In this document: in pieces, positions 30,084-43,864 of the stretch
How the letters are laid out: every line of letters begins with the position of its first letter
How positions within the stretch are numbered: the stretch's first letter is position 1
From: Desulfosudis oleivorans
GTDB taxonomy: Bacteria; Desulfobacterota; Desulfobacteria; Desulfobacterales; SURF-7
DNA: 64,000 bases
NCBI GenBank assembly: GCA_020723325.1
Contig: DYJD01000003.1
Coordinates: 167,822 to 231,821 of the forward strand
Reading direction: 5' to 3'
Notes under the pieces: model-generated
What the model was told of the DNA's origin: nothing
Seen by the model: only the letters and a program-made list of their open reading frames with translations
The model's database searches: none
Made by a program: the position numbers and the translations under genes

Positions 30084-31295
30084 CTAATTCAAAATAGAAA
30101 CCGTAGCCCTGAATTTCACAACAAACGGGAAGCTCAAAACATCGTTTTCAAAATCATGATATGTAGTGTTGTTCCATAGCAAAACACCAGGTAGTATTTC
30201 AGCGCCGATTTGCAGTTTTTTGTGTTGGACCAAGTGCAGACCGATACCGGCAGACAATTCAACGGCGCCGGTATTGTCGTTGCGTATAGTGGAGTTACCG
30301 ACTTGAATTGGATTTTCATAGGACCAGAACAAATGATTATACGCCAGTCCGAGAACAAAATATTGACCCAGGAAGGTATGGCGGGGGGTTGTAAAAAATT
30401 TATAATTGCCCCCAATGCTGAACCCACCCAAACCATGGTCGATGGACTGATCCAAGGTGCTGGTTTTTCTTATCGGCACCCACACCCCGCTCAAGTAAAT
30501 TTCCAAACGAGAATGCTCATCCAGATAGTCTCCCACACCGATCTGTAAGTGATTCCATTTTTCAAAATCAGCGCCCCGGATCAATCCGCTGCCACCACCC
30601 AAGATGACAAATGAATCCTTTTTCCGTTCTTGTTCGTCGTTTACTGGTTGATGGGTAGCTTTGGACTTTATGATTGGCGGCGCTTCCTGCTCCGCTTCCA
30701 TGTCGTTTTGTGCATCCAATTTCTGCTTTTCGATGGGAGTAAGTTCCAATTGCTCCATATTTCCCTCCGGCTCTGGAGAATCAGGGGGCGTTTCTGCTTT
30801 GAAAATATGAGTGTTCTGGGGCGGGGGTTGCAGATCACTTTCATCACTAACTTGCGGCTGCGTTGATTCTTGTTCACTGAAATTTGGACCCGCCAATTGA
30901 TCCGGCATTGGCTCTTCTTCCATTGAATCTTCTTCTTCTTCTTCAGTCTCATAACCGGGGAATGTCTGTTGATTTTTTTTCTGTGAATATTCGTAGTCTG
31001 TCCTTTCTTCGGGCTCCCCAAGGGTGATGTCCAACAGAGAAAACAGGCAGCTTCCACCGGATGAAGAAGAACCGGATTCCTTTGTTCTATGCTTCTGGTT
31101 CGAATATCTTTCCTGTGAATTGTGTCTTGTTCTATTGGTTCTGTCATCTGAATGTCTGTCCGAGGCTTTTTTCATGGCATCGCTCAATTTCCCACGGGAA
31201 TGGCCACCAGAAGCGCACCCGTAGAAAAACGGGGATAGCTGGATCAACAAGAATACCATGAACAAAGCGCGATAAAAATTCCGAGCCGGTAACAT
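30084..31295 (-). CDS. putative lipoprotein with acidic low-complexity linker and C-terminal beta-barrel-like domain
   Basis: Signal/lipobox-like region LLIQLSPFFYGCASGG, a long S/E/D/Q/P-rich tract (…GYETEEEEEDSMEEEPMPDQ…) and a C-terminal ~180 aa with an alternating hydrophobic pattern. Confidence 0.5.
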   Translation of the reverse strand: MLPARNFYRALFMVFLLIQLSPFFYGCASGGHSRGKLSDAMKKASDRHSDDRTNRTRHNSQERYSNQKHRTKESGSSSSGGSCLFSLLDITLGEPEERTDYEYSQKKNQQTFPGYETEEEEEDSMEEEPMPDQLAGPNFSEQESTQPQVSDESDLQPPPQNTHIFKAETPPDSPEPEGNMEQLELTPIEKQKLDAQNDMEAEQEAPPIIKSKATHQPVNDEQERKKDSFVILGGGSGLIRGADFEKWNHLQIGVGDYLDEHSRLEIYLSGVWVPIRKTSTLDQSIDHGLGGFSIGGNYKFFTTPRHTFLGQYFVLGLAYNHLFWSYENPIQVGNSTIRNDNTGAVELSAGIGLHLVQHKKLQIGAEILPGVLLWNNTTYHDFENDVLSFPFVVKFRATVSILN

Positions 31296-31698
31296 TTCAC
31301 TGATCTCCCATGGTTTCAGCTATGAATTCGATTGAATATTATATGCTTCAGTTCAAAAACCTTCAGCCTAATAACCTGACTTAAATAACTTCTAAAAAGC
31401 CGCTGATTGTCTTCCCAGATAAGACAGTCTTGTCCAACAATACAATACCCTCTGCTTTAAATTATGCGTAATTTTTTTTCTGGTATTCATATCTTACTTA
31501 ATTAACGATAAATATTTATCACATGAAAGACTTTGACAAGTTGGCATCCTTCTTGATTGTTTTTATGAATAAATGGAGCATTGCCGTGATGCCTGAATAG
31601 AACCGCATTAACATCAGTTCTAAAAGTGTTCAAGTCCGTCTTGATCGTACTGCTCCTAAATTCCATATGAATTGTCGCGAAAAAACAGGAGACGGACC

Positions 31699-32847
31699 AT
31701 GATGATCCCCGAAAAAAATCAAAACCCCAATGTTGTCCCGATTGATTCCAGTCACCTGTCAATGCTGGAACTGGAAATACACGCCCATAAGCGCAAGCAT
31801 GCTGATGACTTCCGGCAGGATGACGGGAAATGGACTTCCGGCAAACCCTCCGAAATCCTCAGTTGGGATGACATGCTGGATATGGTGGTATTGATCGACC
31901 CGGCCGGAGGCGTGCTCACGGCCAATGCAAGTTTTTATCGCACCATGGGGAGGATGAGAGGCCAAGGCACTCCATTGCGGTTCACCGACCTGGTGCATCC
32001 GCCGGATGTTCCCAAAGTGGAACGCTCCCTGATTCAGGCGCTTCATTTTGAGAAAGCTGTCAGCGGGCTTGAATTCCGGATTGCGATGCAAGACCGGATC
32101 ATGGATGTGGAATGCAATGCCGCAGGGGTCATCCGTGATAGACAGCTTGTCGGCTACCAACTGGTTGTCAGGGACATTACCGGCCGGAAATTGCTGGAGA
32201 GGGATCATGCCAAGGCCATCACCATTATAGGATTGGCCAAACTGGCTGAATTCCGGGATGAGGACACCGGTGCCCATCTGGAAAGAATCCGTGAATACTC
32301 GAGGATTTTGGCCAATGAGCTGAGTGACAAACCCAAATTTAAAGGCTATATCGACAGCGGCTATGTGGAGGACCTGTTTCAATCTTCGACCCTGCATGAT
32401 ATCGGCAAGGTGGGCATATCCGACCGAATTTTGTTGAAACCCGGCAAACTGACCGAAGAAGAATTCAATCTCATCAAACAGCATCCCCAGCTCGGCGGCG
32501 ATGTGCTCAGCAAGATCGACCGGCAGGTGGACAGCCGCTCCTTTCTCACCTTGGGAAAACAGATCGCCTATTATCACCATGAAAAATGGAACGGGACCGG
32601 GTACAGCAGCGGTCTGATGGGGGAGGCCATCCCGCTTTCCGCCAGAATCGTTGCCCTGGCCGATGTATACGACGCCCTGACCTCACGGAGATCTTATAAG
32701 GCAGCCTTCAGCCATGAAAAAGCCGGGGAAATCATTGCTGCTGAAAAGGGTACGCATTTTGATCCTGACATCGCGGATGCCTTCTTGGCCTGTGAAGGGG
32801 AATTCAACAAAATCCGAGGCAGCATGGGGGAAGCGGCAGTGGAATAA
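31699..32847 (+). CDS. PAS-domain HD-GYP phosphohydrolase (c-di-GMP phosphodiesterase family), copy 1
   Basis: HDIGKVGISDRILLKPGKLTEEEF…YHHEKWNGTGYSSGL are the HD and GYP motifs. AGGAGA lies 7 nt upstream of ATG 31699; the ORF track begins at TTG 31672. Confidence 0.85.
   Translation: MMIPEKNQNPNVVPIDSSHLSMLELEIHAHKRKHADDFRQDDGKWTSGKPSEILSWDDMLDMVVLIDPAGGVLTANASFYRTMGRMRGQGTPLRFTDLVHPPDVPKVERSLIQALHFEKAVSGLEFRIAMQDRIMDVECNAAGVIRDRQLVGYQLVVRDITGRKLLERDHAKAITIIGLAKLAEFRDEDTGAHLERIREYSRILANELSDKPKFKGYIDSGYVEDLFQSSTLHDIGKVGISDRILLKPGKLTEEEFNLIKQHPQLGGDVLSKIDRQVDSRSFLTLGKQIAYYHHEKWNGTGYSSGLMGEAIPLSARIVALADVYDALTSRRSYKAAFSHEKAGEIIAAEKGTHFDPDIADAFLACEGEFNKIRGSMGEAAVE
31758..32847 (+). repeat. direct repeat unit 1 of the HD-GYP gene pair (873 bp identical, then ~12% diverged)
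   Basis: 31758-32630 is base-for-base identical to 35713-36585 in every line I compared. From 32631/36586 to the stop codons I count 27 substitutions, of which 4 change an amino acid and 1 is in the stop codon. Confidence 0.9.
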
Positions 32848-33565: not shown

Positions 33566-35584
33566 ATGTATAATGAAAAAACATTCAGAGAATTGAAACA
33601 AAGAATCATCGCGCTTGAGCGAGAGATATCCAACCATAAACAGACAGAAAAAATCCTGAGGGAAAAAAGTGACCTGTATCAAAAACTGTTGAACAACAGC
33701 AAGATTGTCACATACAGGCGCGAGCCGTCTGGGCAGTTTCCCATTACATTTATCAGCGAAAATATTTTCAAGTTATGTGGATATCAAAAAGAGACACTTA
33801 CCGATGATCCACAATTCTGGTCTGATCGCATTCATCCTGATGACAAGCAGCAAGTATTTTCCGATATGGCCTATCTCTTGGAGAAAGGTTGCTGCAGTCA
33901 TGATTATCGGTTTTTGCATGGTGATGGGATGTATCGCTGGGTACACGATGAGTTGGTTTTGATTCGGAATAAAGAGGGCCGCCCTGTGGATATTCTCGGT
34001 AATTGTTTGGACATTAGCGATCTCCAAAAGACGAAGGAGGCCGTAGATAAAACGCTGCTGCTTTTAAAGGCGAGTGTTGAGACGCTCAAAGGTGTTATTA
34101 TTTTTGCAATCGACACAGAATACCGGTATCTCTTTTTCAACGAAGTGCACAGAAAGGGCATGCGTGATGCCTATGGCACTGAGATTGCGGTTGGGAAAAA
34201 TATTCTTGATTGCATTGCAAAAAATTTTGACAGGCAAAAAGCCAAAACGGATTTTGACCGAGCACTAGCCGGGGAGAACCATATTTCGATTCATGAATAT
34301 GGTGAAATCCTTAAAGCATATTACGAAATTATTTTTAACCCCATCGTGAATGACAAGGGTGATATTATCGGAACCATTACCATTGCAACTGATATCACCG
34401 AAAGGATGCGTACGGAAAGATCGCTACGACAGATTGAAAAGATCGAAAGTCTCAAATGCATGGCAGGAGCTATCGCCCATCGTTTTAACAATCAACTTGG
34501 CGTGGTGATGGGCAATCTAGAACTCACTCTATCAGGTCTCCAGACTGATTTTACATTGCGTAATAATATCCAAAAGGCCCTGGAGGCCGCAAGGTGCTCT
34601 GCGGAAACCAGCGGATTGATGCTGGTTTATCTCGGCCAAAGCACAGTTGCTGGAGAACTCATCGATCTTTCCGATGTCTGCAGCCGGTACCTGCCAACCC
34701 TCGATGCATCGATTACAGATACGGTCATCTTTGAAACCGATTTCATGGATGCCGGCCCCATTGTTCTCGCCTCGGCCAGTCAAATGCAGCAGGTTATCGT
34801 CAATTTGATCAGGAATGCCGTCGAAGCCATGGGAAGCAATGATGAAAAGAAAATTATACTGACGACAGGCACTATTTTACCCCATGATCTACCGAAATCT
34901 CATCTGGTACCTCCAGATTTCAAACCCACTGCGAATAGATACGCCTATCTTGAAATCACTGACTCAGGAACTGGAATTGCAGAGGAACATTTAGACAAAC
35001 TTTTTGACCCTTTCTTTTCTACCAGATTCCCGGGGAGAGGGTTGGGCCTGGCGGTATTATTGGGGATCATAACCCAATGGGATGGTGCTGTCCATGTTGA
35101 CAGTAAGACTGGAGGCGGAGCTTCCTTTCGTGTTTTTTTACCGTTACAGGGCAGCGAAGCCATTCCTCTTGCTCCAGAGGCCGCCCCCATTCGATTGGTT
35201 GACAGACCCATGCACAGCGTATTGCTGGTGGAGGATGAAGATACTGTTCGGGAAATGTTTGAGAAATTGCTCGAACACCTTGGCTATTCAGTCCATTCGG
35301 CAAAGAATGGAGCAGGGGCCATCGCGTTTTTTGAGCAGCATCAAAATGAAGTCGGTTGCGTCATCACAGATTTGACCATGCCCGATATGAATGGATGGGC
35401 ACTGATCGCTGCATTGCGGGGGATAGACCCGGATATTCCGATTATACTGGCCAGTGGATACGACGAAACCGATGTTATGGGAGGCAGGCAATCAGAGCGT
35501 CCTCAAGTGTTTCTTCATAAACCATTTATGCTGAACGATCTGAATGCTGCTTTACGAAAGGCTATGGATAAATCCCTAAGCTAA
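33566..35584 (+). CDS. hybrid sensor histidine kinase (coiled coil, PAS domains, HisKA, HATPase, C-terminal receiver)
   Basis: H-box region MAGAIAHRFNNQLGVVMGNLEL, ATPase G-boxes ITDSGTGI and GRGLGLAV, and receiver VLLVEDEDTVREM…ITDLTMPDMNG. Confidence 0.9.
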   Translation: MYNEKTFRELKQRIIALEREISNHKQTEKILREKSDLYQKLLNNSKIVTYRREPSGQFPITFISENIFKLCGYQKETLTDDPQFWSDRIHPDDKQQVFSDMAYLLEKGCCSHDYRFLHGDGMYRWVHDELVLIRNKEGRPVDILGNCLDISDLQKTKEAVDKTLLLLKASVETLKGVIIFAIDTEYRYLFFNEVHRKGMRDAYGTEIAVGKNILDCIAKNFDRQKAKTDFDRALAGENHISIHEYGEILKAYYEIIFNPIVNDKGDIIGTITIATDITERMRTERSLRQIEKIESLKCMAGAIAHRFNNQLGVVMGNLELTLSGLQTDFTLRNNIQKALEAARCSAETSGLMLVYLGQSTVAGELIDLSDVCSRYLPTLDASITDTVIFETDFMDAGPIVLASASQMQQVIVNLIRNAVEAMGSNDEKKIILTTGTILPHDLPKSHLVPPDFKPTANRYAYLEITDSGTGIAEEHLDKLFDPFFSTRFPGRGLGLAVLLGIITQWDGAVHVDSKTGGGASFRVFLPLQGSEAIPLAPEAAPIRLVDRPMHSVLLVEDEDTVREMFEKLLEHLGYSVHSAKNGAGAIAFFEQHQNEVGCVITDLTMPDMNGWALIAALRGIDPDIPIILASGYDETDVMGGRQSERPQVFLHKPFMLNDLNAALRKAMDKSLS

Positions 35585-35712: not shown

Positions 35713-36802
35713 GTCAATGCTGGAACTGGAAATACACGCCCATAAGCGCAAGCATGCTGATGACTTCCGGCAGGATGACGGGAAATGGACTTCCGGCAAA
35801 CCCTCCGAAATCCTCAGTTGGGATGACATGCTGGATATGGTGGTATTGATCGACCCGGCCGGAGGCGTGCTCACGGCCAATGCAAGTTTTTATCGCACCA
35901 TGGGGAGGATGAGAGGCCAAGGCACTCCATTGCGGTTCACCGACCTGGTGCATCCGCCGGATGTTCCCAAAGTGGAACGCTCCCTGATTCAGGCGCTTCA
36001 TTTTGAGAAAGCTGTCAGCGGGCTTGAATTCCGGATTGCGATGCAAGACCGGATCATGGATGTGGAATGCAATGCCGCAGGGGTCATCCGTGATAGACAG
36101 CTTGTCGGCTACCAACTGGTTGTCAGGGACATTACCGGCCGGAAATTGCTGGAGAGGGATCATGCCAAGGCCATCACCATTATAGGATTGGCCAAACTGG
36201 CTGAATTCCGGGATGAGGACACCGGTGCCCATCTGGAAAGAATCCGTGAATACTCGAGGATTTTGGCCAATGAGCTGAGTGACAAACCCAAATTTAAAGG
36301 CTATATCGACAGCGGCTATGTGGAGGACCTGTTTCAATCTTCGACCCTGCATGATATCGGCAAGGTGGGCATATCCGACCGAATTTTGTTGAAACCCGGC
36401 AAACTGACCGAAGAAGAATTCAATCTCATCAAACAGCATCCCCAGCTCGGCGGCGATGTGCTCAGCAAGATCGACCGGCAGGTGGACAGCCGCTCCTTTC
36501 TCACCTTGGGAAAACAGATCGCCTATTATCACCATGAAAAATGGAACGGGACCGGGTACAGCAGCGGTCTGATGGGGGAGGCCATTCCGCTCTCCGCCAG
36601 AATCGTGGCCTTGGCGGATGTTTATGACACCCTGACTTCGCGAAGATCCTACAAGGCGGCCTTCAGTCATGAAAAAGCCGGGGAAATCATCGCTGCTGAA
36701 AGGGGCACGCATTTTGATCCTGACATCGCGGATGCGTTTTTAGCCTGCGAAGGTGAATTCAACAAAATCCGATGCAGCATGGGTGAAGCGTCAGTGGAAT
36801 GA
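35713..36802 (+). repeat. direct repeat unit 2 of the HD-GYP gene pair
   Basis: See 31758-32847. The offset between copies is 3955 bp. Confidence 0.9.
35717..36802 (+). CDS. PAS-domain HD-GYP phosphohydrolase, copy 2 (N-terminally shorter paralog)
   Basis: 361 aa, identical to copy 1 over MLELEIH…GEAIPLSARIVALADVYD, then 4 aa differences. An in-frame TGA lies 6 codons upstream of ATG 35717, and no SD is visible. Confidence 0.8.
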   Translation: MLELEIHAHKRKHADDFRQDDGKWTSGKPSEILSWDDMLDMVVLIDPAGGVLTANASFYRTMGRMRGQGTPLRFTDLVHPPDVPKVERSLIQALHFEKAVSGLEFRIAMQDRIMDVECNAAGVIRDRQLVGYQLVVRDITGRKLLERDHAKAITIIGLAKLAEFRDEDTGAHLERIREYSRILANELSDKPKFKGYIDSGYVEDLFQSSTLHDIGKVGISDRILLKPGKLTEEEFNLIKQHPQLGGDVLSKIDRQVDSRSFLTLGKQIAYYHHEKWNGTGYSSGLMGEAIPLSARIVALADVYDTLTSRRSYKAAFSHEKAGEIIAAERGTHFDPDIADAFLACEGEFNKIRCSMGEASVE

Positions 36803-36946: not shown

Positions 36947-38251
36947 CTACAAAGCCTTTTCTATCCCTTTGAAAATTTCTTCTATATCTTGATCATTTAA
37001 AGTCAGCGGCGGGCGAATGATTACACAATTTTTTGCGACTTCACCTGTTTTTAAAAAAACGCCATTTTTGATCGTACTCCGGCAAAATATTGCCGCATCT
37101 TCCGGGCTTTCCAGGCTCAATGCCAGAAGCAGTCCAATGCCGTCCACCGATTTGATTTTCGAATTTGAAGCCGCCAGTGCTTCCAATTTTTGTTTAAGTT
37201 TCTCTCCTTGTCGCTTGGCATTTTCCCATGGCCTGACTTGATCATACACAGCCAATGCTGTTGCTGCGACGCGACAGCCCACATCATGCCCTCCAAAGGT
37301 TAGCAAATGAATTAACGGGTGCACATCAAAGAATTTCTTCAGAAGTCTTGTAAATATCATCGCACCTATGGGAAACATGCCGCCGCTCAAGGCTTCACCG
37401 ACAAGCATGATATGAGGCAACACTCCGAAATAATCCGCTGCAAACTTTTCCCCGGTTCGGCCGAATCCGGTTTGAGATTCATCGAAAATGAGGAGCGCAC
37501 CCACTTTGTCGCAGGCAACTCGTAATTCCTGAAGATAGATTTTATCGGCAGTCCTACAACCATTTTCAGCTTGAACCGGTTCCAGAATAACGGCGGCTGT
37601 TCGTTTTGTGATGGCCTTGCGCGCAACACTGATGTCATTAAACGGTATTGTTTTAATATCCGGAATCAACGACCCGAAATGCTTTTTATCCGATCGTTCC
37701 GACAGGGACATGGCAAATCCGGTCTGACCGTACCAACCTCCGTCCACGGTGATCAACTCGGATCTCGCCGTATACCCTCTGGCAAGTTTGCAGGCAGCAT
37801 CCATGGCCTCACCTCTCACCACGGTAAACAAGACACAATCCAGCGTACGGGGTGTGAATTTAGCTATTTTTTTCGCCAGCTCCGCTTTTTCTTTGGAAAT
37901 CATGACAAAGTTTCCTTGATCTGTTTCACGAATGGCGCGTCTCAGCTCGGCGGTAATGTCCGAATTTTTCCTTCCCAGATTATAGCTGCCGGCTGAGGTA
38001 TAACAATCCAGAAATACCTTCCCATCACCATTAAAAATCGTGGTGTTTTCCCGTTTGCATTCCTCCCATTCCATTCCCCGGGCTTTCAGATTGTTCACAA
38101 ATCCTTTCCCAAATACCTTTTGAGCGTCAATTATCAGGTTATGGGACGGTTCTCCTTGCTCATTCACGATTTTTTGTAATTTTAACGATTTTTCAATCGG
38201 ATCTTTTTCTTTTTTGATTACAGCAACCTTTTCCTGTGCTGATGTCGTCAT
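36947..38251 (-). CDS. class-III aminotransferase-fold protein lacking the PLP Schiff-base lysine (Lys to Glu)
   Basis: The fold motif LIFDESQTGFGRTGEKFA is present. At the position where the neighbour has DIMVLAKSFGGG, this protein has HIMLVGEALSGG. EPVQAENGC also replaces the usual EPxQGEGG. I prefer ATG 38251 (MTTSAQEK) because GGAGG lies 8 nt upstream. Confidence 0.75.
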   Translation of the reverse strand: MTTSAQEKVAVIKKEKDPIEKSLKLQKIVNEQGEPSHNLIIDAQKVFGKGFVNNLKARGMEWEECKRENTTIFNGDGKVFLDCYTSAGSYNLGRKNSDITAELRRAIRETDQGNFVMISKEKAELAKKIAKFTPRTLDCVLFTVVRGEAMDAACKLARGYTARSELITVDGGWYGQTGFAMSLSERSDKKHFGSLIPDIKTIPFNDISVARKAITKRTAAVILEPVQAENGCRTADKIYLQELRVACDKVGALLIFDESQTGFGRTGEKFAADYFGVLPHIMLVGEALSGGMFPIGAMIFTRLLKKFFDVHPLIHLLTFGGHDVGCRVAATALAVYDQVRPWENAKRQGEKLKQKLEALAASNSKIKSVDGIGLLLALSLESPEDAAIFCRSTIKNGVFLKTGEVAKNCVIIRPPLTLNDQDIEEIFKGIEKAL

Positions 38252-38280
38252 GTCACAACCTCCGGTGGTTTTACGTTTGG

Positions 38281-39663
38281 TTAATTCCAAAATGCAAACT
38301 TGCGCAACCAAACATTAAATGTGATTAAAATATTTCCTTTGTTCAGCATATCCCGTATAAAAGGAATCTTTGAAAGCGGACCCAAGGCAATCAAATACAG
38401 TTTCATCAATCTAATCGCTTTTCGGATGATCGTAAGGATTTCATCGATATCTTGCTCTGTTGCAGCCGTGGGAAGCTGGAATCGCATGACCTGGGGTGCA
38501 TTACCGGAATAGGCGGCAAACATACCATTGGATGCTAAACAGTCGGCCATCAAAATTCCCATGAATTCCTGCTTATACTCAACGCCCACCATCATGCCTC
38601 TGCCGCGGACCTCCCAAATGATGTCTGAATTCTCATCTCGCAACCGACGGAGCCCTCCTAAAAAACGTTCACCCATTTTAGCGACATTTTCCCAAATTTT
38701 ATTTTCAACTATGTAGTCAATCACTGAACTGGAAACTATGCAGCCCAAATCTGAACCACCTCCCAATGAGGTATGGAATTCCGGATTCTGGTCCACAAAA
38801 TTTGTCAGAACGCTGCTATCCCGATATAGAATCGCAGCGTTCGGATACAAACCACCACCAAATGATTTCGCAAGCACCATAATATCCGGTACAACCCTTG
38901 AATGATCCGAGGCCCATAGTTTGCCAGTTCTTCCAAACCCGGTTTGGATCTCGTCAAATATTAGCATTATTCCATACTGATCGCAGATTTCTCTCAATCC
39001 GTTGAGATAATTGTCTGCAGCCACATGGATACCACCTTCTCCTTGAATCGGTTCCAGGATGATCCCGGCCGTGTGCTGGGAAACCATTTGACCTATGGCG
39101 GCAAGATCGCCGAACGGTGCAAATCGGAAGCCCGGCATTAACGGCTGAAATAGTTCCTTATAATAATCTTTCCCATTTGCCGACAGACTCATACCCGAGT
39201 GGCCGTGATAGGCTTTGGTCATGGAGATAATTTCATTACGTCCGGTTGCGCCCCTTGCCAGTTTTAACGCTCCTTCAATCGCATCGGCGCCGGTTCCGCA
39301 AAGCAAGACGCGATTCAAGTCACCCGGTGCAACCGCTACGAGCTTTTTAGCGAGTTCGATCTTTGGGGCGGACAACATGCCATAGGTGCCCATGTCATAA
39401 TCATCCAAAGCCGTTTCCAGTGCTTGAATGATTTGTCGATTACAACGTCCGACATTAAAACATCCCGCTGATGAAAACCCATCAATAAAGGCCCGGCCAG
39501 ATCTGCTTTCATGAAAACGAATCCCATTGCGTTCACCTTCCAAAATATCTAAATGCCCTGCGGATAAGTATCTAATCTGTCCTTTGGATATATGTTTTCC
39601 AAACATTTCAAAAATTTGATCCCGATCTCTCTTTGAGATGGTCTCAGGGCTTGCTGCGTTCAT
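38281..39663 (-). CDS. class-III (omega-amine type) PLP-dependent aminotransferase
   Basis: ILEPIQGEGG, LIFDEIQTGFGRTGKLWA and the catalytic-Lys motif VLAKSFGGG. It carries a ~40-aa hydrophobic C-terminal extension. Confidence 0.85.
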   Translation of the reverse strand: MNAASPETISKRDRDQIFEMFGKHISKGQIRYLSAGHLDILEGERNGIRFHESRSGRAFIDGFSSAGCFNVGRCNRQIIQALETALDDYDMGTYGMLSAPKIELAKKLVAVAPGDLNRVLLCGTGADAIEGALKLARGATGRNEIISMTKAYHGHSGMSLSANGKDYYKELFQPLMPGFRFAPFGDLAAIGQMVSQHTAGIILEPIQGEGGIHVAADNYLNGLREICDQYGIMLIFDEIQTGFGRTGKLWASDHSRVVPDIMVLAKSFGGGLYPNAAILYRDSSVLTNFVDQNPEFHTSLGGGSDLGCIVSSSVIDYIVENKIWENVAKMGERFLGGLRRLRDENSDIIWEVRGRGMMVGVEYKQEFMGILMADCLASNGMFAAYSGNAPQVMRFQLPTAATEQDIDEILTIIRKAIRLMKLYLIALGPLSKIPFIRDMLNKGNILITFNVWLRKFAFWN

Positions 39664-39755: not shown

Positions 39756-40670
39756 TCAGTGCAGTTTCAGCAATTGGGCAGCATTTTCATATAGTATTTT
39801 TCTTTCTAGTTTGGGGTTACAACTACAGGCCACTTTTACCGCTTTGAGCCCTGCTTGCCGACTTCCAAAGGGCCAGTCCGATCCGAAAAGCACTTTGTCT
39901 TCACCAAAAACATCAATTAAATCTCTTATCGACTCAGGTGATTGCAGGGAAGTATCCACCCAGATATGATTATATCCGCCCAAGAGTCTAATCACCTCTT
40001 TTACGTCATACATACCGGCATGCCCTACAATAAATTTTGCACCCGGATATGCAGAAACCAAAGCCCTCGCTTCCTTGATAGTGCCATATTCCGGAATGTT
40101 ATGTTTTTTTTCCTTACCTGTGTAGTAATTGGAGATGCCCGCATGGAATAAAATAGGCAGGTCAAATCTCATAAATGAACGAACAGCGCGCAGCATGCGC
40201 TCATCTGTAAATGGAACCTTTTGGATTATCGGATGAAGCTTCAGACCTTTTGCACCCTGCTTTATTTCCTCGGCAAACTGTATTTCCAGTTGCTCCATAT
40301 GAGTAAAATCAACACCTGTGAAGGGTATCAGTCCAGGATCCTTTTCTGAAGCCTGCTTCACGTCAGAGAAGGATACATGGGGTGGGAGAGGTAAGCACAC
40401 AGAAGAAGTTATCCCGGTTGCGTTCATTGACTTTCGTGCATTTTCCCGTGTGGCCGTGAAATTTCGCTCTTGTTCGGCCCTGATAATCCAGCGCAAAAAT
40501 AATCTATAGGGCAGGGTCCCCATTCCATAGTTTCGATTTAAGCTCATTTGCCATATGGAAATCGGGTCAAATATCAATTTCTTGCGAATCCCTTTGTGTT
40601 CAATAATGCGCCCGCCGTCTGGATATAAGATATCACCTACATGAGAATGAGCATCGATTATCGGGGGCAT
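39756..40670 (-). CDS. amidohydrolase-2 family metal-dependent hydrolase (TIM barrel)
   Basis: N-terminal MPPIIDAHSHVG is the His-x-His metal motif; also FHAG and GHAG. GAGGAGA lies before ATG 40670. Confidence 0.7.
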   Translation of the reverse strand: MPPIIDAHSHVGDILYPDGGRIIEHKGIRKKLIFDPISIWQMSLNRNYGMGTLPYRLFLRWIIRAEQERNFTATRENARKSMNATGITSSVCLPLPPHVSFSDVKQASEKDPGLIPFTGVDFTHMEQLEIQFAEEIKQGAKGLKLHPIIQKVPFTDERMLRAVRSFMRFDLPILFHAGISNYYTGKEKKHNIPEYGTIKEARALVSAYPGAKFIVGHAGMYDVKEVIRLLGGYNHIWVDTSLQSPESIRDLIDVFGEDKVLFGSDWPFGSRQAGLKAVKVACSCNPKLERKILYENAAQLLKLH

Positions 40671-40699
40671 AATTTCTCCTCTTTTTGATCGTTTTATGA

Positions 40700-41806
40700 T
40701 CAATTAATGTATTGGCTGCACTCCATCTTAAGCGAATCGGCGACTTTGTCGTTCATCAACTGCCCTTGAAAAACATTGAGGCCTTTTGCCAGTGGGATAT
40801 TCTCCTCAATAGCCTTTTCACATCCTTTTTCTGCTAGTTCCAGTGCGAAGGGCAGGGTGGCATTGGTAAGTGCATATGTGGAGGTAACCGGCACTGCGCC
40901 GGGCATGTTGGTTACGCAATAATGCACTACACCATTTTCTTCAAATATCGGTTTATCATGGGTCGTTGGTCTGCTACTTTCCGCGCAGCCGCCCTGATCG
41001 ATAGCGATGTCGACAAATGCGGCCCCGGTTTTCATACTTGAAAGCATTTCCCGACTGATCAACTTCGGTGCCCTAGCTCCCGGGATCAGAACAGAACCGA
41101 TGATTAGGTCCGCACCTGCAATACTCTCTGCGATGTTAGCCGGATTTGACATCATGGTGACAATTCTGGAATGGAAAATATCTTCAAGATAGCGGAGGCG
41201 ATCTATGTCAATGTCTAAAATCGTTACCCTGGCACCCATCCCCACCGCAAGGTGGGCTGCATTAAGCCCCGATATTCCACCGCCGATGATGGTTACCTGG
41301 GCGGGAGGTACACCAGGAACACCTGACAGCAACATGCCCCGTCCACCATTTTTAGATTCGAGACAGTAGCATCCCATCTGCACGGCGAGACGTCCCGCCA
41401 CCTCACTCATAGGAGCAAGCAAGGGCAAGCTGCCATCTTCCCGCTGAATGGTCTCATAAGCGATACCAACAACCTTTTTTTCAAGCAACTTCAGGGTGAG
41501 CTCTCTATCCGCGGCAAGATGGAGATAGGTAAAAAGGATCTGGCCTGGACGCATTATTTCAAATTCATGCCCCAGCGGTTCCTTGACCTTGACAATCATT
41601 TCCGCTTCATACCAGACACTGTCGGCATCCGGTAGAATGACCGCCCCTGCTCGCTCAAAGGCCTTATCAGAAAGGCCTGAACCAATGCCCGCCTCTTTTT
41701 CAATATAGACGGTATGGCCTTTGGCGATAAAAGCCTCGACACCTGCCGGAGTAAGTGCCACCCGCTTCTCCATATTTTTAATTTCTTTTGGGACTCCGAT
41801 TTCCAT
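40700..41806 (-). CDS. ald: L-alanine dehydrogenase
   Basis: [23 protein letters not shown]… matches the canonical Ald N-terminus, with an NAD-binding region [22 protein letters not shown] lies before ATG 41806. Confidence 0.85.
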
Positions 41807-41862
41807 TTTGCACCTCAAAAATTTCAATTTTTAAACTGTCTTTAGAACGAAAAAATAATTTT

Positions 41863-42133: not shown

Positions 42134-42724
42134 ATGAGCCGCAGAAGTGTACAAGCGGAAAGACGGCAACAAATAATGGAAGCTTTACATAAATGTCTGC
42201 TGGAAAAGCCGTTTGATCAGACCTCAATTAAGGATATCGCCGCAACCGCCCAAATAAACTATGGCGCGCTGCACTACTATTTTGAGAGTAAGGAGGATAT
42301 CCTATTAAATTATATTGAATACCTGATCGAACGTTATAAATCGTTTTTTGAAGAATGGATTCAATCAAATAGCTCCTCCATGCAAGACCCAAAAGACTTT
42401 CTTCGTGCTAGCATTGATTTCGTGCACCATAAAATAACTTTGAATCAGGATCTATCTAAAATTTTTATCGAAATCTGGGAAATCGCTATTTATAACTCGA
42501 AGGTTAAGGAAAAGCTCCAAAAAGCCTATACTGAATGGATTGAAACCGTTAACCTGGCAATTCTCAAAGTCACCGCAAACAAGACTACGGCCGCCCGCCT
42601 GAGCGTTGGATTGGCTGCCTTTTGGGAGGGCATTTCTCTATTTTCGATCATTCTCGATGAGAAAACAATTGAAGCAGGAGCACTTCTCAAGGACTTTCAG
42701 GAACAGTTCCTAAAATTTTTGTAA
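42134..42724 (+). CDS. TetR/AcrR-family transcriptional regulator
   Basis: The N-terminal HTH RRQQIMEALHKCLLEKPFDQTSIKDIAATAQINYGALHYYFESKEDIL is the classic TetR signature. Confidence 0.9.
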   Translation: MSRRSVQAERRQQIMEALHKCLLEKPFDQTSIKDIAATAQINYGALHYYFESKEDILLNYIEYLIERYKSFFEEWIQSNSSSMQDPKDFLRASIDFVHHKITLNQDLSKIFIEIWEIAIYNSKVKEKLQKAYTEWIETVNLAILKVTANKTTAARLSVGLAAFWEGISLFSIILDEKTIEAGALLKDFQEQFLKFL

Positions 42725-43162
42725 ACTCAACGCGCCCATTTATCATTTGAAATACGTTTATGCATATTCATACTCCTACCAGTTCTCAGATCAATAGTTT
42801 TATTCACTAATTGATGGAATCGTAAAAAGCAAAACTTTATTAATATATTGCTAAGTTTATAGTTTTTGAATCAGCCTGATTCCTGATCGGAGCGTTGAAC
42901 ACCAGTCGTTACAAGCGCCCACCAGTTTTCCCATTGCAATCGGAACAACGAAAACGACATTTAAGATCGCCATTTTAACGATTCAATCGAATGTTGTTGC
43001 CGAATTTTTGGATTCCAGCTTATTCCATACCCAATGAAAGTCGCGTGCCGGGGCTGTTTGGTTGCAGTGACCCGGGTGCGGTGTTCCTGTTCATGAAAAT
43101 AACAGTCCCTCCCTGGTTCGGATCATTGGGCGGACACAACAACTTAGAAAATGGAGGCTTCC

Positions 43163-43864
43163 ATGAAAATGAGAAATGTTACCATCTATTATTTTTTGAT
43201 TGCCCTGTCGGCGGTTTGCCTGTTCGGCCGTGGGCCTGCGGCCGCGGCTGACCCGGCGCCGGCTTCGAAACCCTATCAATGGCGCTTTCCGGTCGGTTTG
43301 GGGGGCGTCACGGCATTTGATGATGTTGCCGACCGTTATGAGGACAACCTGCGTGCTAAAGGCTACACCGTGGACAAGGATGGTGCTTTCCCTGTCGGCA
43401 TTTCGTTTCAGCCGTATGTGGAGCTCAATACCGGCTTGCGTCTCGGTTGCGGCATCGGTCCTGCGACCTTCCTTTGGTATGGGGATGATAAAGACGATCA
43501 CTACCGCAGCTATCATTCAAAATACGATGATGACAGTAATGATGTCCATTTCTACGATGTTCCGGTGAACATGACCATTGGGTACACCTTCATGCCCACA
43601 GCGGATTTCTCCCCCTATGTCCGGGGCGGGTTCATCTACCATATCGCCGGTGGTGACTACGTGGAAGGGGTTACCCCGGGCCTGTTCGGTGCCTTCGGTA
43701 TCGAATTTTTCAGAAATAACAAGGTCGGCTTTGGGGTCGAGGTGGGTTACGACACTTCCAGAATCGAATTCGAGCGCTACCGCGACAACAATGTTTCCAT
43801 TGTCAAGGATTTCGAAGAGATGGATCCTTACAAAGTTGTCATCAGCGGGTATGCAGTTTTTTAA
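43163..43864 (+). CDS. outer-membrane beta-barrel protein (porin-family/OmpW-like)
   Basis: Signal peptide MKMRNVTIYYFLIALSAVCLFGRGPAAAA, alternating beta-strand pattern, and a C-terminal aromatic ending …VISGYAVF. Confidence 0.7.
   Translation: MKMRNVTIYYFLIALSAVCLFGRGPAAAADPAPASKPYQWRFPVGLGGVTAFDDVADRYEDNLRAKGYTVDKDGAFPVGISFQPYVELNTGLRLGCGIGPATFLWYGDDKDDHYRSYHSKYDDDSNDVHFYDVPVNMTIGYTFMPTADFSPYVRGGFIYHIAGGDYVEGVTPGLFGAFGIEFFRNNKVGFGVEVGYDTSRIEFERYRDNNVSIVKDFEEMDPYKVVISGYAVF

Follow-up and report, generated by a model that had tools for sequence, protein, structure and literature searches.

The stretch of Desulfosudis oleivorans DNA analyzed here, 64,000 nucleotides of contig DYJD01000003.1 (assembly GCA_020723325.1; hereafter the window), carries on its minus strand two adjacent genes for homologs of the class-III aminotransferases, AT1 and AT2, which lie at the end of an operon of four co-directional minus-strand genes in the order alanine dehydrogenase (AlaDH), Amidohydro_2 hydrolase, AT1, and AT2. 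Class III includes the γ-aminobutyric acid, ornithine, acetylornithine, and putrescine aminotransferases, BioA, and the industrial omega-transaminases, and its members are regarded as homo-oligomeric, each dimer having two active sites that are equivalent. In fold-type-I aminotransferases a lysine forms the internal aldimine with pyridoxal 5'-phosphate (PLP) and acts as the proton shuttle, and the class-III active sites lie at the dimer interface. AT1 has this lysine and AT2 does not, and the two proteins would together make up one enzyme. The features of the pair are listed by window position, with residues of Escherichia coli YgjG as reference and an asterisk marking a residue of the other subunit.

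36947..38251, minus strand: AT2, a Lys-less class-III aminotransferase homolog of 434 aa (open reading frame; Pfam PF00202), proposed as the non-catalytic subunit
38281..39663, minus strand: AT1, a canonical class-III aminotransferase of 460 aa with K266 (Pfam Aminotran_3), proposed as the catalytic subunit
38259..38263, minus strand: GGAGG Shine-Dalgarno sequence of AT2, 7 nt 5' of the ATG, within the 29-nt spacer (from the sequence)
37394..37396, minus strand: GAA codon of AT2 Glu286, in the column of the catalytic Lys, motif G-E-A (from alignments to AT1 and YgjG)
37811..37816, minus strand: codons of AT2 Arg146-Gly147, in place of the Gly-Thr that binds phosphate in the S-G-T-E motif (YgjG G150/T151)
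37298..37300, minus strand: ACC codon of AT2 Thr318, equivalent to YgjG T332*, the Thr donated to the PLP phosphate of the partner
38284..38412, minus strand: C-terminal extension of AT1, ~43 aa, residues ~418-460, without counterpart in AT2 or YgjG

In YgjG, which is a putrescine aminotransferase, the phosphate of PLP is held by Gly150 and Thr151 together with Thr332* of the other subunit, Asp271 binds the pyridine nitrogen, Phe180 and Val273 sandwich the ring, and Lys300 is the Schiff-base residue; Glu243, Gln274, and Arg426 are also conserved, and Phe327* stands at the entrance to the substrate cleft (PMC4244111). AT2 is encoded by an intact open reading frame that runs on the minus strand from an ATG at 38251 to a TAG stop at 36947. 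Both members of the pair match the Pfam family Aminotran_3 (PF00202) well, with 233 bits for AT2 and 280 bits for AT1 (gathering cutoff, 30.5), and they are 33% identical to each other (BLASTP). Opposite the Schiff-base lysine, AT2 has Glu286, embedded in the sequence LVGEALSGG; this residue aligns with K266 of AT1 by BLASTP and with K300 of YgjG (PDB 4uox) by phmmer. At the other cofactor-binding sites of YgjG, the window AT2 has Arg146-Gly147 for Gly150-Thr151, Trp for Phe180, and Ser for Val273, and the canonical Arg (YgjG R426) is lost, with an Arg present two residues further on. The EPxQGEGG loop has become EPVQAENGC (QGEGG to QAENG), the Asp and Gln of FDExQTG are retained, and the equivalents of Glu243 and of Thr332, the latter as Thr318, are also in place. 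Compared with a catalytically competent class-III enzyme, AT2 lacks the Schiff-base Lys, the phosphate-binding Gly-Thr, and the ring-sandwich residues, and it has the Asp and the Gln.

An earlier note, made from the letters of this DNA alone, had reported a Glu at the lysine position of the downstream protein, the altered EPVQAENGC loop, the retention of the FDE Asp and of the fold motifs, an intact reading frame with a GGAGG Shine-Dalgarno sequence, and a gap of 29 nt between the genes. All of these descriptions hold: the alignments to AT1 and to YgjG agree on the Glu, the loop and the Asp and Gln are as described and Aminotran_3 is matched, and the GGAGG lies at 38263-38259, 7 nt from the ATG, between the AT1 stop at 38281 and the AT2 start at 38251. 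The note had also raised the possibility that a different lysine occupies the active site. At the sequence level, the family alignment contains no invariant AT2-specific Lys that could act as a substitute: four Lys columns are conserved, of which only K122 and K155 are invariant, AT1 and YgjG having a Lys at the homologous positions too, which are not catalytic, and K189 and K305 vary to Arg or Asn within the family. An Fe-S or metal site built from the conserved Cys of AT2 was considered and rejected, as C83, C247, and C326 are homologous in YgjG or AT1; C154 and C232 are the only conserved Cys specific to AT2.

The AlphaFold2 monomer model of AT2 is confident (predicted local distance difference test [pLDDT] of 88, predicted template modeling score of 0.86) and superposes on YgjG (4uox) with a Foldseek TM score of 0.9, so that the fold of AT2 is predicted to be intact. 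The sole internal segment with pLDDT <50 in this model is the loop of residues 315-318, which contains Thr318, and its low score fits a loop that would become ordered against a partner.

The Glu is a fixed character of the AT2 family. A search of 5.8 billion proteins gave 1250 matches below 1e-30, and each of the best 120 (50-100% identity), which were examined, has Glu at the Lys column in the context G-E-A (120/120). The same residue is found in 84/84 sequences of a family set that comprises the window AT2 and 83 sequences from 87 fetched loci, with duplicates removed. These counts refute the suggestion, raised in the earlier note, that the Glu might be a strain-specific mutation. In a profile-free scan of 1.84 billion cluster representatives, the Glu clade is discrete (P0058, P0082, P0241-P0245, and fragments), with a sharp fall in score between it and the nearest Lys-containing relatives. 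A genome scan with one genome per species yielded 80 loci with AT2. The hosts span at least eight bacterial lineages, with Desulfobacterales and other Thermodesulfobacteriota, Leptospirales and other Spirochaetota, Bacteroidales/Rikenellaceae (Bacteroidota), Bacteriovoracaceae (Bdellovibrionota), Nitrospiraceae (Nitrospirota), Hydrogenedentes, SAR324, and Polyangiaceae (Myxococcota) among them; Desulfoluna limicola ASN36 and D. butyratoxydans MSL71 are examples of hosts in culture. An alignment of 41 AT2 sequences has 64 invariant columns. The invariant residues of the pseudo-site are R146, E224, Q227, E229, D257, and E286; Q260, N230, and C232 come close to invariance.

AT2 is accompanied by AT1. 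In 82 of the 87 fetched loci, the gene immediately 5' of AT2 is of AT1 type and has the same orientation, and the products of these upstream genes score 500-900 bits against AT1 and ~240 bits against AT2; at the remaining five loci, AT2 abuts a contig end or the upstream gene was recovered as a fragment only. The pairing was also seen in three loci examined with precomputed gene calls and in a reverse test, in which the AT1 homolog P0211, picked without reference to AT2, proved to have an AT2-type gene downstream. The distance from the AT1 stop codon to the AT2 start codon has a median of 4 nt (among 75 pairs, 66 have a gap of no more than 30 nt, including 21 whose genes overlap, by 1 or 4 nt), and in most of the 75 loci the Shine-Dalgarno sequence for AT2 sits inside the 3' end of AT1 or in the spacer. 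Such an arrangement fits translational coupling of the two genes. The pairwise distances of AT1 and AT2 correlate (r = 0.91), and AT2 is the more divergent protein in 96% of comparisons, by a factor of ~1.13 only, which argues that AT2 is under strong purifying selection.

The residues that surround PLP in YgjG are distributed reciprocally over the two families. For AT1, counts were taken from two sets, of 76 and 120 sequences; for AT2, from the 84-member set. At the Schiff-base position (K300), AT1 has Lys in 76/76 and 120/120 and AT2 has Glu. At the phosphate-binding position Gly150, AT1 has Gly in 76/76 and 119/120 (one sequence is gapped), and AT2 has Arg in 83/83, followed in the Thr151 column by Gly in 83/83; one further AT2 sequence is gapped at the Arg-Gly columns. 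The F180-His-Gly segment, which provides the ring-stacking residue, is Y-H-G throughout AT1 (76/76, 120/120), and the stacking position of AT2 is occupied by Trp (43), Cys (20), Tyr (7), or Ser (6); in the Val273 column, on the other side of the ring sandwich, AT2 has Thr (68) or Ser (16). The EPxQGE and DExQT motifs of AT1 are complete in 76/76, and the equivalents of E243, D271, and Q274 are present in 76/76 and 120/120. Of these, AT2 retains the pyridine-nitrogen Asp (D271) in 84/84 and the O3'-binding Gln (Q274) in 80/84. The Arg at the R426 column is likewise universal in AT1 (76/76, 120/120), and in AT2 it is lost, with an Arg two residues later.

The positions donated across the interface have the opposite distribution. 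In the T332* column, AT2 has Thr in 84/84, and AT1 has His (40), Ser (38), Phe (19), Leu (11), Met (5), and also Tyr, with Thr in only 1/120. The residue that follows is Phe in 82/84 AT2 sequences and Gly or Ser in AT1, and the F327* column at the cleft entrance is Leu (80) or Met (4) in AT2 and variable in AT1. As a control, 133 diverse Lys-containing class-III representatives were inspected at the same columns: the donated-Thr column is Thr or Ser in 131/133, the adjacent residue is Phe or Tyr in 115/133, and the phosphate-Gly column is Gly in 125/133. AT1 has all of the same-subunit elements for binding PLP (Lys, Gly, aromatic-His-Gly, EPxQGE, DExQT, and Arg) and lacks the donated Thr/Ser that characterizes a homodimer (YgjG T332*). 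P0247 and P0250, which are the closest relatives of AT1 that contain the Lys and keep the Thr, have no second aminotransferase gene. On these alignments, each of the two proteins has lost precisely what the other keeps, such that in a homodimer of either, both sites would be short of canonical contacts. A dimer of AT1 with AT2 would have one complete site, composed of the PLP-binding residues of AT1 and the donated residues of AT2, and one degenerate site.

A Lys-less protein beside a Lys-containing one is found outside this family as well. Among the 150 best matches are three other Lys-less representatives: in P0258 and P0265 the Lys is replaced by Arg, and in P0269 by His. All three have on their 3' side a Lys-containing Aminotran_3 gene, which shares 4 nt with P0258 and with P0265 and begins 23 nt beyond the end of P0269 (the pairs are at L089:552-3061, L090:3047-5652, and L092:4868-8477). 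A DUF6206 gene lies directly upstream of P0265 and of P0269, and the upstream gene of P0258 is cut by the contig end and has no assignment. All three retain the donated Thr, in the sequence ISTFGG, and their Lys-containing partners have Glu at that column; judged by sequence, these pairs are an independent lineage that repeats the AT1/AT2 pattern. The Lys-containing partners in this other lineage also bear shorter tails related to the C-terminal extension of AT1. A further protein, P0246 (pair at L088:192-2833), is 38% identical to AT2 by phmmer and 37% in the alignment, and its gene follows one that is AT1-like. P0246 has the Arg-Gly motif but has kept the Lys, the His, and the canonical Arg, and the pair may be an evolutionary intermediate. 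Solitary Lys-containing relatives are P0247, P0250, P0248, and P0273. In a neighbor-joining tree, which was built without bootstrap and is indicative only, AT1 and AT2 do not come out as sisters: AT2 falls with P0246 and the other Lys-less lineage, and AT1 with the AT1-like counterpart at L088 and the solitary enzymes. Because both members of the Lys-retaining L088 pair are placed as sisters to the AT1 and AT2 clades, the tree suggests that pairing arose before the Lys was lost.

AT1 and AT2 probably constitute an obligate heteromeric class-III aminotransferase in which AT2 is a pseudoenzyme subunit. Of the three possibilities that the earlier note had listed for the downstream protein, the non-catalytic heterodimer partner is the one that the gene pairing, the tight spacing, and the reciprocal loss favor. 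Sequence comparison shows the conservation, the pairing, and the reciprocal loss; from these we infer a physical heteromer, either an alpha-beta dimer or an alpha2-beta2 tetramer, and with it a PLP stoichiometry, a reaction, and a substrate, along the following lines. AT1 would bind PLP through K266 and carry out catalysis. AT2 would form no internal aldimine and would probably bind no PLP; it would complete the active site of AT1 across the interface, with Thr318 reaching the phosphate of PLP and a conserved Leu, in the position of YgjG Phe327*, at the entrance to the AT1 cleft. In the pseudo-site, Arg146 and Glu286, perhaps paired with Asp257 in a salt bridge, would probably fill the empty cofactor pocket. 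In the operon, AlaDH would regenerate pyruvate and free ammonium, the amidohydrolase would supply the amine, an alcohol dehydrogenase, where present, would process the aldehyde, and a TetR repressor would control expression.

Several observations weigh against this assignment. The pseudo-site of AT2 is conserved far beyond the need of a merely empty pocket and may have a function of its own. P0246, with its Arg-Gly motif and its Lys, indicates that an Arg in place of the phosphate-binding Gly is perhaps not enough to prevent the cofactor from binding. Covariation between the proteins (mutual information with average product correction, 76 pairs) was uninformative, its top pairs being clade markers that reflect shared phylogeny. 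The gene neighborhood beyond AlaDH and TetR is heterogeneous, which makes any choice of substrate, or of the direction in which the reaction runs, tentative.

The first of these points gives a small but real probability to a heteromer in which AT2 is a ligand-binding or regulatory subunit, with a pocket that binds an effector, a second portion of the substrate, or non-covalent PLP or pyridoxamine 5'-phosphate (PMP) and that tunes or gates AT1. The invariance or near-invariance of R146, G147, E224, Q227, E229, N230, C232, D257, Q260, E286, and the displaced R413 in a family of ~50% identity would be explained by such a role, and P0246 joins the Arg-Gly motif with a kept Lys. However, the ring-sandwich positions of AT2 are variable or polar (W/C/Y/S and Thr/Ser), the donated-Thr column of AT1, which would face the AT2 pocket, is not conserved, and no data point to a ligand. 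The binding or regulatory subunit proposed in the earlier note thus draws support from the conservation of the pseudo-site but ranks below the non-catalytic heterodimer partner. It is also conceivable, if unlikely, that the pocket (Arg146, Glu286, Asp257, Gln260, Glu229, Asn230, and Cys232) is a second functional site, either for Lys-independent chemistry on PLP or PMP bound with no Schiff base and with Glu as the base, or for a substrate or effector, in which case the heteromer would couple two different activities or be allosterically gated. In both versions the pair would stand for an entire unrecognized clade of asymmetric class-III enzymes that includes the DUF6206-linked K-to-R and K-to-H pairs.

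That AT2 is itself an enzyme with altered cofactor chemistry, either PMP-dependent or using free PLP with Glu286 as general base, is improbable. A comparable mode of action is found in the Lys-to-His dehydratases ColD and E1, and AT2 keeps the pyridine-nitrogen Asp (84/84) and the O3' Gln (80/84) in a reading frame under purifying selection. The earlier note had offered altered PLP chemistry as its third option, which is disfavored here: Gly-Thr has become Arg-Gly, with an invariant Arg at the phosphate position, the ring-stacking residues are unconserved and the ring-sandwich positions variable or polar, and the canonical carboxylate Arg is gone. Moreover, AT2 was not seen without AT1 in the fetched loci, and AT1 has lost the Thr that an AT2 site would need. 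We consider about as improbable a role for AT2 apart from AT1, such as that of a homodimeric sensor or binding protein whose gene simply shares a transcript with AT1. A conserved operon is by itself no proof of contact, but the reciprocal loss and retention of interface-donated residues is hard to explain without a shared interface, and overlapping stop and start codons are typical of the subunits of a complex. The idea that AT2 is a decaying duplicate or incipient pseudogene with a strain-specific Lys-to-Glu change has the missing Lys in its favor and nothing further, and it deserves practically no credence, being refuted by a Glu fixed in >200 sequences across phyla, intact open reading frames, 64 invariant columns, and a divergence only 1.13 times that of AT1.

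Two regions of AT1 may bear on the proposed heteromer of AT1 and AT2. The C-terminal extension, which is specific to the AT1 family, has the consensus M..YL....PLA.IP..R..L.N..VQI..FN..R..E and is predicted to be helical, with pLDDT falling from 85 to 48; it might clasp AT2. The segment GHSG.SLSANGKDYYK is near-invariant among AT1 proteins, although the monomer model gives it a pLDDT <50 (loop 158-164; window 38866-39200, residues ~155-266). From the model, this loop may become ordered only in the complex or on substrate binding.

In the PDB, no relative of AT1 or AT2 is closer than YgjG/PatA (4uox), which has the same fold (phmmer E = 1e-50 for AT2 and 3e-73 for AT1) and the same active-site architecture. 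The subunits of YgjG are identical and each has PLP, whereas here the roles would be divided over paralogs that are 33% identical. A similar division is known in eukaryotic serine palmitoyltransferase, in which LCB2 is the PLP-binding, catalytic subunit and LCB1 is thought not to bind the cofactor and is needed for the complex; the bacterial ancestor of this enzyme is a homodimer (PMC5519370). The likeness lies in a heterodimer of related PLP-fold proteins, one of them catalytic, a parallel that for AT1/AT2 is drawn from sequence, and in the obligatory co-occurrence of a Lys-less paralog with a Lys-containing one, as seen for AT1/AT2 at 82/87 loci. LCB1/LCB2, however, belongs to class II of fold type I (the alpha-oxoamine synthases) and forms a eukaryotic membrane complex that catalyzes a Claisen condensation, whereas AT1/AT2 is bacterial, soluble as judged by sequence, and operon-encoded, and AT2 has fixed a Glu and an Arg-Gly motif. 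In trypanosomatid deoxyhypusine synthase, a dead paralog hetero-oligomerizes with an impaired active one, both being needed for full activity (PMC3663545). Prozyme-type activators of this kind are unrelated to AT1/AT2 in fold and cofactor, and an activation of AT1 by AT2 is putative.

The concept of a catalytic subunit with a dead partner is already known from LCB1/LCB2 and the prozyme systems. A heteromeric or Lys-less class-III aminotransferase pair was found described neither in full-text literature searches nor in a 2022 review of aminotransferase evolution or a 2023 review of pseudoenzymes, and AT1/AT2 would be, as far as found in the literature, the first such pair in class III. If the heteromer is real, it is a bacterial, operon-encoded counterpart of LCB1/LCB2, and AT1 produced without AT2 would lack activity or stability, for want of the donated Thr. 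Hundreds of AT2 genes are now annotated as "aspartate aminotransferase family protein" or "putrescine aminotransferase", and asymmetric single-site transaminases are of practical interest for enzyme engineering.

The remaining genes of the operon and its putative regulator are as follows.

39756..40703, minus strand: Amidohydro_2 metal-dependent hydrolase, same operon (Pfam PF04909, 95 bits)
40700..41827, minus strand: alanine dehydrogenase, first gene of the operon (TIGR00518 alaDH, 539 bits against a cutoff of 392); the start is probably the ATG at 41806
42134..42724, plus strand: TetR-family regulator, divergent from the operon (Pfam TetR_N), likely the regulator of the AT1-AT2 operon

For the amidohydrolase, searches gave no NCBIfam model at cutoff and no close relative in the PDB. 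Across the loci, an orthologous TetR gene is present beside the pair at 36, AlaDH at ~25 of 83, Amidohydro_2 at 13, and a 553-aa Amidohydro_3 protein at 10; at 10 loci, the gene that follows AT2 encodes a Tdh-like Zn-dependent alcohol dehydrogenase of 415 aa. By Pfam and NCBIfam, the recurrent neighbors, which also include a short-chain dehydrogenase/reductase and a saccharopine-dehydrogenase-like protein, belong to generic families only, from which no specific pathway can be named. In AT1, the residue after Y-H-G is His in 76/76 rather than Arg, and 2-oxoglutarate-specific class-III enzymes have Arg at this position. The His, together with the AlaDH neighbors, makes pyruvate a plausible acceptor, and sequence and context make an amine:pyruvate transaminase, coupled to alanine recycling, the most likely identity of AT1/AT2. 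Taurine:pyruvate aminotransferase (Tpa) is a class-III amine:pyruvate transaminase that is also encoded beside alanine dehydrogenase; Tpa is not known to take more than a single gene, whereas AT1/AT2 would take two. The UniRef entry for the D. oleivorans ortholog of AT1, A8ZX23, carries the automatic name "Taurine--pyruvate aminotransferase", a transferred and unconfirmed label, and no sulfoacetaldehyde-processing genes were seen near the pair in the neighborhoods examined. In NCBIfam, no model reaches its cutoff for AT1 or AT2, and the scores against the putrescine aminotransferase models fall well below theirs (NF008570, 313 for AT1 and 219 for AT2 against 612; TIGR03372, 253 and 191 against 659). 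The pair points to an uncharacterized amine-catabolic module in sulfate reducers, spirochaetes, and Bacteroidales.

Beyond the operon, the window contains two near-identical copies of an HD-GYP-type signaling gene, at 31672-32847 (391 aa) and 35717-36802 (361 aa), which differ by a few substitutions near the C terminus and share 300 nt at 100% identity (31758-32057 and 35713-36012). The copies form a direct repeat of ~1.1 kb, bracket a gene for a PAS-histidine kinase-receiver protein at 33566-35584, and approach AT2 to the extent that the end of the second copy lies ~145 nt from the AT2 stop codon. Two further open reading frames, at 30084-31295 (minus strand) and 43151-43864 (plus strand), encode proteins with signal-peptide- or lipoprotein-like N termini and C-terminal parts that resemble outer-membrane β-barrels, and the former has in addition a long, acidic, Ser/Glu/Pro-rich stretch of low complexity.

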